From: Eledone cirrhosa
Lineage: Eukaryota
Reading direction: 5' to 3'
NCBI GenBank assembly: GCA_964016885.1
Contig: OZ024759.1
Coordinates: 28,892,001-28,956,000, forward strand
Length of the DNA: 64,000 nt
Shown here: positions 1-62,079 of the stretch, piece by piece
Layout: each line of letters opens with the position of its first letter
Numbering within the stretch: position 1 is the stretch's first letter
The notes under the pieces: model-generated
What the model saw: the letters and a program-made list of their open reading frames with translations, nothing else
The model's database searches: none
What the model was told of the DNA's origin: nothing
Position numbers and translations under genes: made by a program

Positions 1-2095
1 TGAACCCGAGATACACACACACACACACACACACACACACACATATACATATATACATATATATATATACATATATATATATATATATATACATACATAT
101 ATATATACACATATATATATATATACACACACACACACATATATATATATATATATATATATATATATATATATATTTAATACATTAACAGAGAAAGCTT
201 TAAGCTATACTCTGACTGGCTTCCATCTCACTCAACAAACTTTAGGATATACCTTAGTATAATCCCAATTATATGTTTGGATTGTGCTAACTATATGTAT
301 TTTGTGGAAAGCCAGCTGTATTATTTTATATGAGATACAATTAAAATATATATATATATATATATATATATATATATATATATATATATATATAAAATAA
401 AGATTCATTCCGAAGAAGACACTATGATCGAACCCATATATTATGTCTTATAGTATACAGTCAATATATCGATATCATCAACCCTCCCACTCTCTCTACC
501 CTAAAAATGTTCCTGCTAGACATCTACGCAGTTTAAAATGTGATTTCTTGAAGGAAAGATGGCGGCGAAAAGGAACAAAATAAGAAACAACTTGATTTGG
601 TTTGGTTTGGTTTGGTTTGGTTTGGTTTGGTTTGGTTTAGTTTGGTTTGGTTTAGTTTGGTCTCTCTCTCTCTCACTCTCTCATCCATCTCTCTCTCTCT
701 CTCTCTCATCCATCTCTCTCTCTCTCTGCAATCTTGTCACCAATCATGTAGATAGTCAATAGGTCACATTGTAACTGTACACTATATATATATTTATATA
801 TATATATATATATATATATATTTAGATAGATATAGATATAGATATATATGCATACATATACAAATACGTACACACACACACACACACACACACACACACA
901 CACACACACACATATATATATATATATATATATATATATATATACACATATATACATATATACACATACATCCAGATATATATATATATATATATATATA
1001 TATATATATATATATATATACACATATACATACACACAAATATACACAGATATACATACACAAATAAATATATAAATATATATATATATATATATATACA
1101 CATAATGAACAAACAAACACATAAATACAGACAAACACACATCATACACGCCGAAGCCAGTAAGGTGCCTATATGTGTGAGAACAGGCTATATAATGTGA
1201 ATTGGGATGTTAAGCGTTTACACATGTTTCAGGCAAGTGTATATATTTCAACGTATCAGCCACAATTCACTTGACTCCCTAGCGATTACAGAACATATTC
1301 TACACCAACTCCCCCCCCCCCCCCCCCCACAGCCCTATATATATATGTGTGTGTGTGTTTATGATATATATATATATATATATATATATACACATATACA
1401 TATATATATATATATATATATACACACATATATATATATATATACACATATATATATATATATATATATATATATATATATATACACACATGTATATATA
1501 TATATATACATATAAATATAAATATATACACTCACATACATTATGTATATATATATATATATATACGTGCACACACAAACGTAAGTAAATAAACAAGTTC
1601 TAAGAAGGCATATATATATATATATATATATGTTCTTATATATTATATATATATATATATATATATAATATATATATATATATATATATTTATATATAAA
1701 TCAGGAAAGAAGAGTGACACGGTTTGCTATACAAAAAAGGTTTTTAATCTCATTGCTGACAATTGTTTCTCTGAACTGGTAGGTCTAGAGATCGCTACCC
1801 GCTTGTTTTCACGTCATTCGATCACCAATACATAGTTGACTCAAACTTAGCCAAGCGTATATATATATACACACGAATATATATATATATACACACAAAT
1901 ATATATATATATACACACAAATATATATATATATATATACACACAAATATTATATATATATATATATATATATATATATATATATATATATATATATATA
2001 TATATATATATACACACACAAATATATATATATACACACAAATATATATATATATATACACACAAATATTATATATATATATATATATATATATA

Positions 2096-2175
2096 CAGTT
2101 TTTTCCGTTGTGTTGTAATATAAATATTACACACAGTAGATTATCAGCTCACGTAGAGTTTGCTCGACGGTTCCA
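2096..2175 (-). mobile_element. Solo 80-bp terminal fragment of the same PLE family, in (TA)n
   Basis: Identical by eye to 34147-34226 (cagttttttccgttgtg...gctcgacggttcca), with (TA)n on both sides. Confidence 0.85.
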
Positions 2176-3785
2176 TATATATATAATATATAAGAACATA
2201 TATATATATATATATACACACACAAATATATATATATATATACACACAAATATTATATATATATATATATATATATATATATACACATATATATATATAT
2301 ATATACACACACAAATATATATATATATATATATATATATATATATATATATACACAAATATATATATATATACACAAATATATATATATATATATATAT
2401 ATATATATATATATATATATATATATACACACACAAATATATATATATATATTATGAAGACACATATTCACTTTTATCAACTTTGCCCCACTCTCTGTAT
2501 ATATATATATATATATATATATGTGTGTGTGTGTGTGTGTGTGTGTGTGTGTGTGTGTGTTTGAAGACAACCTACATCTGCCAACCGAGACAGACTCAAC
2601 TCGATCGGAAATATGAAACGAGGATACATCTAGGTGAAGCTGCCTCCGACTGGAAACGAACGTTCGGCTCTGCTGCCTCAGGTTGCCTTAGAAAACAGCT
2701 GACGCAGCCTACCTTCACTCCAGAAGGCCTGTGTATGTGCAGGCGTCTATCTATTTGTGTGTATATATATATATATAGAGAGAGAGAGAGAAGAGAGAGA
2801 GAGAGAGACAGTTGTACGAAATCGCCATTAATACATATCAGGAGCCGACTGACGATTATTGTGATTTCTTCTGTGATTTTACCCCTCGTTCTCGTTCACA
2901 ATGTCCCCACTCCATTTATCTTTCTCTCTAAATATATATATGTATATATATTTAATTGTTTTTTCCTGTGTAGATTTGTGATATGTGATTGCAATGTTTG
3001 TTGCTTTAATTAATTAATTAATTAATTAATCTGCAAATTATTATTGATGTGTGCAATTACATTTCGTTAAATCGAAACGGACATCGAAATTAATAAAATG
3101 CTTTCAATATTTGGTTTTTACCTAAATTAAATTATATATAAATACACACATACACACATATATATGTGTGTGTGTGTGTGTGTGCGTTTTTATATGTATT
3201 GATATATATGTAAACCACCCTGTACTGTATATGAAGATATATATATATATAATATATATATATATATATATTATATATATATATATATATATATATATAC
3301 CTGGTTGTGGTGGGGCTGATAACGTTGTTAGAGCTTTGGAAGGAAGGTTGCAGGAAGATTAAGCAGTGTGACTAGTAGGTTTTGTAGTGGCTGATCACCG
3401 CTTAATCTATCCTCGAAGAAAATTCCTCCAGGTTACAGAGTCATCTACATATATGTGTTTGTGCATAGGACACTAAATATAACCAGAAGTCAGATGGAGG
3501 TTAACAAACTACCTTACGTCTGACTTCTGTTTTTTTATTGTCTTATGCACACACACACACACTTACATATATATATATATATATATATATATATATATAT
3601 ATATATATATATATATATATATATATATATATATATATATATATATATTAGAAAGTGAGGTTTCTTTTACAAAATGAAAAATAACCGAGGTGTCCTACAC
3701 GAGTGGAAGTATAAAGAAAAAGAGATGAAATCGAAAATGCAACTGGAGTCTTATTTTTTTTTTAAATATATATATTTATTTGGTT

Positions 3786-3823
3786 CCTTTACCGGTTTCG
3801 CAGTTCTTCTGCTTTTCAAAAGG
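3786..3823 (-). ncRNA. Minimal hammerhead variant with U3-A8 core (family I, element about 3648-3860)
   Basis: The minus strand reads cctt-TTGAAAA-gcag-aagaa-ctgc-GAAA-CCGG-TA-aagg. A related copy at 50243-50430 (motif 50369-50406) keeps TTGAAAA. Confidence 0.65.
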
Positions 3824-58948: not shown

Positions 58949-59578
58949 GTTCTGGTGGTCACAGTGATATTAGTGGTGGTAAGAGTGATGGTGGTGATGA
59001 TGGGGGGTGTCGTGACGATGGCGGTTGTTGTTCTTGTGGTGATGGTGTTGTTGTTTCTGCAGTTGTTCGTACTGGTGCTAATATATTCATAACTACATAC
59101 ACTACTGTGAATTAACCAAGACTGCATGAAAGTATTGCTATTGTATAATACCTCTAAATAGTGCACAATTTAAGACACACACATACATATATATATATAT
59201 ATATAAACTTTCTAGTATTCGACTCTAACCATAATTTTCAGTAGTACCACCCCACATAAATTCCCCAATTTAAGAATGACCTGTAGTATCGAATTTCATA
59301 CTATAAACCTCAATTGAATATATATCTGACCCGGAATGCTTTTTGTGAAAATCAGTCATATGGAACTATTGTCATCTTGCCTGACGGTTTGAACTTTACA
59401 ACACCACCTGCCTGTTTGAGGTCAAATACCAACCCTACTAGCATCTACAAACTGACCAATGAGAATTAAGATTATTCCTGCTGACAACATTAAATTATCC
59501 CTAACAAGTTCATATGTCCCAAGGCTCTGATACCATCAACACCAAAAACACAGAGCTGGCATTTCTAAGAACTGACTA

Positions 59579-59636
59579 ACTGCCTGATGAGGTCATAGCC
59601 ATTCAATGGCTATCATCGAACTATATATATAGCAGT
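59579..59636 (+). ncRNA. Hammerhead-like motif with (TA)n stem III, at the end of a decayed PLE 3' fragment (about 59205-59680)
   Basis: actgc-CTGATGA-ggtcatagccatt-c-aatggctatcatc-GAAC-tatatata-TA-gcagt. Upstream, 59299-59322 reads YYKPQLNI, like a GIY-YIG C-terminus. Confidence 0.6.
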
Positions 59637-62079
59637 AAATAAATGATTATGAGTTCATGCAATTGACTTATGTTTCGTCACTATATATATATTATTCAAA
59701 ATATTAATAAATGGAGACATTCATGTAATCAAAATATATGTTTGTTTATATATATCCATTTATTAATATTTTGAATAATATTAATAACTCCAGAAAACTT
59801 TTTCTGTTGAGTGCTTTTAATCTAGTGTAAAACTATATTCATTGAATAATCAATGAACCTTGTTTAATATTTGGTTTTATATATATATATATACTATATA
59901 TAGAGTTATAAACTCAAACAGTCTTTTACAATTAAATAGCTCAAAGAAAGAGATATTTCTGAGCCGTGAAATACAAATTAATATAAATTAATAAATGTAA
60001 TTTGTATTAATATATGTAATTTGTATTGTATATATATATATATATATATATATATATATATATATATATATATATATATATATATAGCGGAAATTATAAT
60101 ATTTCCTTTGTTTAACACTTCGAATCTACCCGCCAAAACCGAGGGTTGCTTCCCTTGTTGGAAATATCACGTGATAAATAAATGTGCGTTCAGCTCACTC
60201 ATAGCGGCAGCATTTAAAATCCACCTGGCTTTTGGAAAGAACGGAACTCCTGTGGATGCAATGAAACCTCTGTTCGTCATGGAATACCACGAGCGTGCTT
60301 GTTACGTAAGTCGGATATTTGATTTCGGATTCACAGTTTAATTTTCGGATTCACCGTTTAATTTATCCAGGTGTATTTTTTCAACCTGTTAGTTTTTTCG
60401 TTACTTTGGTATTATGTGTTAGGTTTTGCCTACCGCAATGTTCAATTTGTCTAGCTATTTAAACGTATGTTATTGCTCTAAGGACCTACCCTTATTGAGT
60501 GCTTTGCTACCTCATTCATATTGTAGGTCACAGCCAAAGATTCGATTTTACTAAGCCCCCACATGTATATATATATATATATATATATATATATATATAT
60601 ATATATATATATATATATATATATATATGTATATATATATACATGTGGTGGGTTAGTAAATGTAAATGTATATATATGTGTACAAGCAATATTTATTAGA
60701 ATGCTGTTGTAGTGTGTCTACATTTTTGGGGACACTCTGTATATATATATATATATATATATATATATATATATATATACATATATATATATATATATAT
60801 ATATATATTTATACATATACATATATATATATACATATATATATATACATATATATATATACATATATATATATACATATATATATATACATATATATAT
60901 ATACATATATATATATATATATATATATATATATATATATATATATATATATATATATATATATATATATATACTGTATACATTATATGTATATATATAC
61001 ATATATATATATATATACATATATACATACATATATATACACATACATATATACATATATATACACATACATATATATATACACATACATATACATACAT
61101 ATATATATACATATATATATATATACATACATATATATATACACACTTATATATACACATATATATATATACATATATATATATATATATATACATATAT
61201 ATACAAATATATATATAGACATATATATACACATATATATACATATATATATATATATATATATACATATATATATATATATATATACATATATATATAT
61301 TAGGATCGGTGCTCTGTGCCAAATATACTATACATACATTCATATATATACACACAGATATACATATATATATATATATATATATATATATATATGCACA
61401 GACAGACTTAGAGACATTAAGATGTACGGGAGGAAAATGGCGGTAGTAATAGATCATCTGACCTTCTCTACGTCATCGGTCAGTGCACCAAGCAATGGTG
61501 TTCAGTGCATGCAGGAATGCAGGAATGCAGGATGCAGATACTGCGTATTTTACCTGTATGTTGTCAACACTTAAGAAACTGGCTTCATAATTGAAAGATA
61601 CAACATATCATCTGCTGGCTGGCTTACGTAGATTTATATACTTACCTGTGAGTGTGTGTGTGTGTATATATATATATATATATGTATATGTGTGTGTGTG
61701 TGTGTGTGTGTGTGTGTGTGTGTGTGTGTGTGTGTGTGTGTGTGTGTGTGTGTGTGTGTGTGTGTGTGTGTGTGTGTGTGTGTGTGTGTGTGTGCTTGTG
61801 TGTGCTTGTGTATGTGTATATACGCACGAGATTGAAATATCTATGTATATATATATATATATATATATATACACAAATACATATATATATATATATATAC
61901 ACAGATATACATATATTCATATATAAACGTATATATGTGTACATATATATACACATACATGTATACATCTATATGTATATATATATATATATATATATAT
62001 ATATATATGGTGGGTTATACCTATTCTAAACACATAATTTATACTTTTTATACTTAATTATACTTAATTATTATCATTA

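Follow-up and report, generated by a model that had tools for sequence, protein, structure and literature searches.

A 64,000-nucleotide stretch of the Eledone cirrhosa genome (assembly GCA_964016885.1, contig OZ024759.1, positions 28,892,001 to 28,956,000; hereafter the window, numbered from its first nucleotide) contains many short islands of sequence set between (TA)n arrays. Our reading, to which we give a probability of about 0.7, is that these islands are the 3' ends of Penelope-like elements (PLEs), from five Hydra-type families and one Neptune-type family, together with one non-coding repeat. They were likely inserted by target-primed reverse transcription into TA arrays that already existed, with double priming at two sites, A and B, that lie beside a hairpin, and hammerhead cleavage was likely not needed for this. 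The original prediction had proposed a guild of TA-targeting PLEs and non-autonomous ribozyme elements. The proposal was borne out: an open reading frame (ORF) with reverse transcriptase (RT) and GIY-YIG domains is present in the window (family F1), families F3, F4, F6, F7 and F8 are linked to endonuclease (EN) sequences, and family F13 is non-coding. Two corrections are needed. Most of the linked families fall in a single clade, and because core changes are fixed in several of the commonest hammerheads, their activity cannot be taken for granted. Hammerheads in the ends of TA-targeting PLEs, as first written, are largely an arrangement already known (Cervera 2014; Craig 2021).

A Hydra-type element in the window

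Runs of at least five TA units number 436 and make up 14% of the window. The 176 open frames are translated repeats, except for short LINE-like (long interspersed element) remnants and one retroelement ORF. The latter belongs to a 5'-truncated Hydra-type PLE of family F1, on the plus strand at 34147..37157. Its inverted arm (34147-34294) ends at site A and its sense body at site B, with TA arrays on both sides. The ORF remnant (34290..36053, plus strand) retains the RT core, thumb, CxCX5C linker and GIY-YIG domain, as judged from motifs read by eye. Copy searches throughout the 3.0-Gb assembly (L-numbers designate individual genome loci examined) yielded the complete frame at locus L011, a single ORF of 773 amino acids in which the RT precedes a C-terminal GIY-YIG. 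The protein shares with the Hydra clade of EN+ PLEs, as Craig 2021 (PMC8557442) defines it, the C-terminal GIY-YIG, the RWK and DKT motifs, the CxCX5C linker, the CxxC and CxH motifs and the absence of CCHH. The assignment to Hydra is by protein motifs, and that of F8 to Neptune by EN motifs. Pfam returned no hits for the F1 ORF and PDB no significant one. Membership in Naiad was rejected because the EN is C-terminal. The tandem period of F1, approximately 3.58 kb, is longer than the "generally under 3 kb" that Craig 2021 gives as a descriptive trait of Hydra.

The genome holds 45,004 candidate F1 copies. The 130 that were scored (129 besides the window copy) are all 99-100% identical. With intact 773-amino-acid ORFs in many near-identical copies, F1 is very young. 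Among the sequencing runs listed as containing F1, none was an RNA run. A terminal fragment of the family, ending at site A, is found at 2096..2175 on the minus strand and is 100% identical to 34149-34226.

Insertions end at two sites, and pair one of each

The two F1 sites are 113 nt apart. At both the element continues with TAT, and both abut a TA array. All 28 of the 3' ends visible in 20 stretches fall at A (13) or B (15), each next to TA. TA runs likewise border the seven non-inverted 5' ends that could be seen, consistent with insertion into arrays that were already there. Sites A and B are 80-160 nt apart across the Hydra-type families, for which the F1 3' ends and the flanks of the other families indicate insertion into (TA)n.

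Many insertions are double-ended, with two arms pointing outward. Among those that could be scored, 55 of 56 combine one A end with one B end: 8/9 in F1 (window included), 8/8 in F3, 9/9 in F4, 10/10 in F6, 14/14 in F7 and 6/6 in F11. The F4 figure comes from a set whose query was taken upstream of B; a second F4 set, chosen for site A, gave 18 A/B and no A/A insertions. The only A/A case, at F1 locus L176, has its flank duplicated as well.

Two side observations concern the junctions. In F4 fold-backs (L013-L042), the 5' junctions concentrate within loop II, 35-46 nt to the upstream side of the cleavage site, which suggests a structure-induced stop or a template switch. Loci L040, L208 and L226 hold chimeric insertions in which the end of one family is joined to the body of another, suggesting template switching between co-existing PLE RNAs.

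A bulged hairpin recurs next to the sites

A hairpin of the form CTC-inner stem-2 nt-GAG lies 6-14 nt past sites A and B. The tails of F4, F5, F6, F7 and the family at 14440 share the frame RCTC-inner stem-2-nt bulge-GAGT-RCT; the form in F3 is GCTC/GAGC and that in F1, seen beyond each of the two sites, is CTC/GAG, and F6 carries an additional hairpin beyond site A. The inner stems differ completely from family to family and the frame is kept. The pattern matches the window 15 times, against 0.55 in 100 shuffles, a count that shows recurrence rather than function since the pattern was chosen from these same tails; in 14 of the 15 matches, a TA end follows 42-62 nt further downstream. Judging from sequence, the hairpin likely tells the enzyme where copying starts.

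In the part of the Craig 2021 supplement compared, inspection by eye revealed two such hairpins at the start of Hydra-1_Ajap (sea cucumber), before the ATG, one near the 3' end of Hydra-2_Ajap (sea cucumber), just after a TA-like run, and variants in Hydra-1_Crog. The record printed before Hydra-1_Obim has one as well; none was evident by eye at the 3' end of Hydra-1_Obim itself. An 8-mer comparison with the Craig supplement gave mostly chance matches.

Five island families are joined to endonuclease genes

The original prediction proposed extending the family consensuses upstream to look for PLE ORFs, and such extension reached them in five families besides F1. A Hydra-type EN lies about 0.65-1.2 kb upstream in F3, F4, F6 and F7, and a Neptune-type EN upstream in F8. 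The five Hydra-type ENs, that of F1 included, are 31-50% identical in translation, and all five translations have the CxCX5C linker, CxxC and CxH, and no CCHH. Thus, the families, which had been called unrelated, are so in their DNA only; five of them encode related enzymes. The hammerheads of F6 and F7 are canonical and that of F4 is of the U3-A8 type. F1 (G12A; G17 or short stem I) and F3 (U4A) depart from the consensus and were therefore filed as variants.

The F3 terminus in the window (14144..14306, plus strand) has its U4A hammerhead at 14236-14286, and further pieces lie at 3881-4046, 25484-25544 and 49748-49893. The EN is found about 1 kb upstream of the terminus in L213, L214, L234 and L235. 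An exact F3 pattern matches 20,650 times genome-wide (reversed control, 0), and U4A is present in 96 of the 100 matches listed. F4 forms a fold-back of an A arm and a B arm at 22995..23186, with pieces at 4070, 9445, 9540, 9969, 14363, 26249, 38654 and 41357. The window pieces have only the 3' half of the hammerhead, with a 5-bp stem III; the U3-A8 core lies upstream of the truncation. Since upstream copies show this core, the idea that F4 lacks a hammerhead was rejected. The three-way fold was obtained for the L210 copy, and the EN is upstream in L184, L194, L210 and L212. F6 forms two A/B fold-back units at 5394..6120, their hairpins ending at 5671 and 5804, with intact hammerheads at 5429-5499 and 5876-5946 (minus strand) and at 6013-6083 (plus strand). 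Its exact pattern occurs 10,848 times in the genome (reversed control, 0); the EN is upstream in L247, L252, L253 and L272, and L256 and L258 read through to the next ORF start. The F7 fold-back at 22441..22829 contains an intact hammerhead (22719-22780, plus strand) and a damaged one near 22600-22650 (minus strand); a second unit is at 59680-59877, and the EN is found 1-1.2 kb upstream in L053 and L066. An A/B fold-back at 14440..14643, of an F6/F7-like family with 30 related copies, has a near-intact hammerhead at 14541.

The F8 terminus (28024..28160, plus strand) has a minimal hammerhead at 28039-28074, and degenerate copies lie at 26436, 31355 and 32240. It is joined to an EN in L081 and L086, which share the upstream sequence; the frames of L086, from broken copies only, show the CX2-5CxxC linker and CCHH of the Neptune clade as given in Craig 2021. 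F8 copies end at TA repeats in 22 of 30 cases and at CA repeats in 8, and a single 3' end was seen. An ORF downstream of F8 in L081 is a separate insertion, a TA array lying between the two.

F13 (25948..26248, minus strand) is a retrozyme-like non-coding unit of about 320 bp (319 bp in L110) with a hammerhead at 26110-26153 that has a long stem I and a 5-bp stem III. Ten of the 16 loci shown have head-to-tail overlap, so that F13 falls among tandem non-coding units of 150-450 bp with a type I hammerhead. An exact 13-nt probe found no second same-strand hammerhead in 30 loci; L110 holds a second, altered one. The fold of F13 has a z-score of -3.2, though its minimum free energy (MFE) structure differs from the three-way form. 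No same-strand match to a Hydra ORF was found in 30 loci, and ORF matches nearby are separate insertions, being on the opposite strand. F13 resembles metazoan non-LTR retrozymes, as described for them (PMC7229834; Li et al. 2026, 10.64898/2026.07.22.740005), in its head-to-tail non-coding unit and type I hammerhead, and differs from them in occurring mostly as 1-2 units that end in TA arrays, often with inverted arms. By analogy with what has been proposed for retrozymes, it is likely mobilized by the same kind of enzyme.

The remaining termini are smaller families. F2 (3649..3846, minus strand) has an intact U3-A8 minimal hammerhead at 3786-3823, 17 copies in the loci examined and a second, degenerate copy at 50244-50429. 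F11 (49533..49690, minus strand) has a hammerhead with a large insert in stem II, whose stem I is cut off in the window copy; 30 loci showed no ORF link. A terminus at 22843..22970 (minus strand), with an intact hammerhead at 22870-22930, has one other copy. The sequence at 59575..59640 (plus strand) is a damaged copy from a family with an intact hammerhead with palindromic stem III (17 related copies with GAAA). An F5-type terminus at 60384..60565 (plus strand), also seen at 5258, 23216 and 55530, has the shared hairpin and no hammerhead in view.

Hammerhead motifs exceed chance, and several have altered cores

A strict type I hammerhead descriptor matched the window 6 times, against 0-1 matches in each of 30 island-wise dinucleotide shuffles in which microsatellites were left in place. 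A relaxed descriptor, which also admits U3-A8 variants, U4 variants and a longer stem II, matched 9 times, against a mean of 0.07 and a maximum of 2 in 100 shuffles. The excess over shuffled sequence that had been anticipated was thus confirmed. These 6 strict and 9 relaxed matches have the CUGANGA/GAAA/UH core with stems I-III; one of the nine, at 24959, scores low and may be due to chance. An Rfam scan of the window returned no match at the gathering threshold, and only microsatellite-driven matches appeared among the 150 of 691 E-value rows listed. MFE folding rarely yields the three-way form for minimal motifs (z +0.4 to -3.2) and provides neither support nor refutation. With arrays this dense, the spacing of 6-163 nt between a hammerhead and the TA run that follows is uninformative.

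The estimate of about 20 motifs in 64 kb holds only if damaged and partial copies are counted. Among the 14 sites originally listed, five are intact: 3786 (minus strand, U3-A8 core), 6015, 22719, 26110 and 28039. Three more are damaged copies from families in which the motif is full or nearly so (14541, 59579, and 49584 with its missing stem I). At another three the motif is present, and its core is non-canonical family-wide: 14236 (U4A, 23/23), 36166 (A at position 12, 36/36) and 37004 (G17 or a 2-bp stem I, 31/31). The last three were not confirmed and, like the previous three, lack the full arrangement of CUGANGA/GAAA/UH core with stems I-III: stems I and III are missing at 4239, in the window copy and in two others; 22246 has no other copy in the 863 kb of genome loci compared; and at 39445, with one other copy, stems I and III do not close. 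The list did not include the intact minus-strand motif at 22870-22930, two further F6 copies and nine F4 3' fragments.

Cores are incomplete at a further set of candidates (4732, 32721/32889, 62527, 3490 and the tandem at 6649-7146), which fail the descriptors; for 3490, 4732 and 6649 no copies were found in the 863 kb. At 6560-7240, a degenerate CUGAAGA...GAAA unit is repeated five times in tandem; this may be the remains of an old retrozyme-like array, and it too has no copies in the 863 kb. Two related TA-bound termini at 32683-32927 have CUGAYGA and a short stem and no GAAA, possibly a variant ribozyme or a half motif. Long TA-bound palindromes are present at 39105-39613, where the stems of a CUGAUGA do not close, and at 25698-25874, with no core in view.

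Core sequences were tallied across genomic copies, where a few of the misses are off-target matches of the search pattern. The 5' core is canonical in F6 (36/39), F7 (34/39), F8 (30/31) and F13 (32/36), and of the U3-A8 type, a known covariant hammerhead core (PMC4209133), in F4 (30/31) and F2 (9/12). F11 (n=24) is mixed, with 11 canonical copies and 6 with U4C, a change reported to reduce activity in vitro; natural core variants can be active (PMC3088659). F3 has U4A in all 23 copies. The F1 element has two hammerhead-like motifs, both on the plus strand. Motif 1 (36166..36223) has a CUGAUGA core, an 8-bp stem II, a palindromic stem III and C17; its 3' core has A in place of G12, the general base of the hammerhead (PMC6155905), in 36/36 copies. 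Motif 2 (37005..37050) has its core and GAAA intact, but either G17 or a stem I of 2 bp; its 5' core is kept in 24/24 copies and the G at that position in 31/31. According to PMC3884650, G17 strongly impairs minimal hammerheads, and G17 forms with tertiary stabilisation can be active. By eye, the block order of F3 and F4 is that of an ordinary type I, when compared with the S-G-C order of the type-SGC permuted hammerhead (Eckert 2023, PMC10085705). Very successful families carry altered cores, namely U4A in F3 and, in the youngest family, F1, G12A together with either G17 or a shortened stem I, and the ribozymes of such families may be inactive.

The arms bear on cleavage as well. None of 93 opposite-strand arm ends, which were not selected by the query, lies within 3 nt of the predicted cleavage site, and 59 of the 93 arms run through it. 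The copied RNA was thus apparently uncut at the hammerhead, suggesting that cleavage is likely not required for insertion.

Other repeats in the window

Self-BLAST of the masked window gave 18 repeat clusters, part of which are pieces of short interspersed elements (SINEs) and LINEs and not TA-bound islands. An abundant SINE-like family, often in tandem and not tied to TA, occurs at 8893-9072, 15112, 29871-30430, 39851, 41975, 43155, 52223, 55625 and 62066, and a second one at 31427, 50463, 55293 and 56784. A satellite with a unit of 10-11 bp, some of its blocks inverted, takes up about 5 kb at 43380-48220. Remnants of the 3' part of LINE-like ORFs, recognised by eye (Pfam, 0 hits), lie at 12847-13200, 31627-32025 and 49933-50232. 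Higher-order arrays of TA runs and short fixed spacers, some of which resemble amplified element junctions, are found at 10151-10798, 32958-33957 and 57000-57700.

Discussion

The arrangement of ends suggests how the islands may have been inserted. A read-through RNA, consisting of pseudo-long terminal repeat (pLTR), ORF and pLTR, would be bound at its hairpins, probably by a dimer, and the GIY-YIG domains would introduce nicks into the two strands of a TA array. By pairing with TA-like bases of the element at A or B, the nicked 3' ends would prime two cDNAs, one from each site. The two cDNAs would then join at their 5'-truncated ends, often via microhomology, to produce mirror insertions with tails outward, one long and one short. 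Cleavage would be dispensable for these steps, and some families thrive with altered cores. A more specific version, for which we consider the chances about even, is that the conserved bulged hairpin, present twice, serves a dimeric RT-endonuclease as its binding site, and that this enzyme primes on both nicked TA strands at once, one per hairpin. The hammerhead would then have become optional, allowing the most successful families to spread with cores that are catalytically altered.

The Poseidon protein PAc provides a precedent. As reported in PMC11167929, it nicks and extends both strands, uses two internal RT start sites, which set the tail, is a predicted dimer and can dispense with hammerhead activity in vitro; a similar behavior is proposed here from sequence. 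In PAc the two sites are separated by 30-40 nt and located within the start of the ORF, in an AC-rich stem-loop. Sites A and B, in contrast, are found before the ATG; their sequence matches the TA target, and a bulged hairpin follows them.

Several points weigh against double priming at A and B. That PAc starts at sites non-homologous to the DNA it cuts is one, given the TA match here. Overlaps of tens to hundreds of bases between the two arms are frequent; to account for them, twin priming would have to involve strand displacement on a single RNA, or else a tandem or second RNA. The 56 scored pairs are the loci with both ends legible, drawn from 171 loci or stretches after one-arm, unclear-end and duplicate views had been dropped; the F6 pairs, and five of those in F3/F7, were assigned by visual inspection, and the ambiguous L054 was excluded. 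The 93 arm ends include repeats from the same locus and short palindromic matches. The hairpin was not seen in F2 or F13, nor past site A in F3, F4, F7 and F11, where no read-through copy turned up. Its pattern was drawn by eye, and its recurrence could reflect shared ancestry. Finally, ORF links were obtained in F3, F4, F6, F7 and F8, and the islands also comprise F2, F11 and the families at 22870, 14541 and 59579.

The ends and mirror copies might instead arise after insertion of a PLE, through EN-mediated resolution, or through fold-back repair or recombination between TA arrays, with trimming at TA-like spots and the hairpin as inherited 5'-UTR (untranslated region) or promoter sequence. 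Craig 2021 assigns the tail to "EN-mediated resolution" (PMC8557442), microhomology could favour A and B since both are TA-like, and L176 shows that palindromes including the flank do occur. However, the F1 3' UTR has many longer TA runs and yet all 28 ends fall at two sites; random trimming would also give A/A and B/B pairs, whereas A/B was observed in all cases but one; and the hairpin keeps its frame while its inner stems are wholly different. We therefore consider such an origin unlikely. It is also rather improbable that the hammerheads are active and essential, cutting multimeric transcripts, as dimers or with the help of protein, to make the template, with tertiary contacts or protein compensating for the variant cores. 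In favour of this, F2, F4, F6, F7, F8 and F13 retain canonical or U3-A8 cores, the PAc hammerhead cleaves once its protein is added (PMC11167929), the natural variants and stabilised G17 forms mentioned above can be active, and cleavage could still define a 5' end further upstream. Yet the arms pass through the cleavage site and none stops there, the general base is replaced by A in every F1 copy scored, and hammerhead mutations leave PAc insertion unchanged (PMC11167929).

Very little speaks for the islands being mainly autonomous-RNA retrozymes or chance AT-rich matches unrelated to PLE ORFs. F13 fits a retrozyme, 3 of the 14 listed sites were unconfirmed and Rfam finds none, but the excess of descriptor matches over shuffles and the physical joining of five island families to EN ORFs already largely refute this possibility, which we regard as highly improbable.

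Much of this fits what is known of related elements. The Hydra clade shares, according to Craig 2021 (PMC8557442), (TA)n insertion, a hammerhead near the 3' end, an inverted 5' copy and a tail at one end, and Hydra-1_Obim of Octopus bimaculoides is listed there with (TA)n preference and a hammerhead. The families found here differ from Hydra-1_Obim, whose N-terminus is, by eye, unlike that of F1. Compared with the Hydra elements in that account, the F1 unit of about 3.6 kb has two non-canonical motifs, tails are 80-160 nt rather than 30-40, and copies reach 10,000-20,000. The minimal type I hammerheads of PLE pLTRs share with those described here a palindromic stem III, an extra base before stem II, the U3-A8 core and thousands of solo copies from truncated PLEs (PMC4209133). 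Family-fixed U4A and G12A cores were not found for PLE pLTR hammerheads in the parts of Cervera and de la Pena 2014 available (PMC4209133). The A/B pairing rule, the hairpin, the family-fixed core changes and the copy scale were not found in the full-text literature searched, which was mostly open-access and did not include Lunse 2017 on variants; nor did the titles listed there point to a paper on twin priming of inverted Penelope insertions.

Ends bearing hammerheads number 10,000-20,000 in single families of this genome, and such ends are easily lost when simple repeats are masked; ribozymes go unmentioned in a 2026 octopus repeat annotation. F1, young, with intact ORFs, a simple target and two mapped ends, makes it directly testable with the published PAc assay how PLEs choose the RT start, why their insertions are inverted and one-tailed, and what the hammerhead does.

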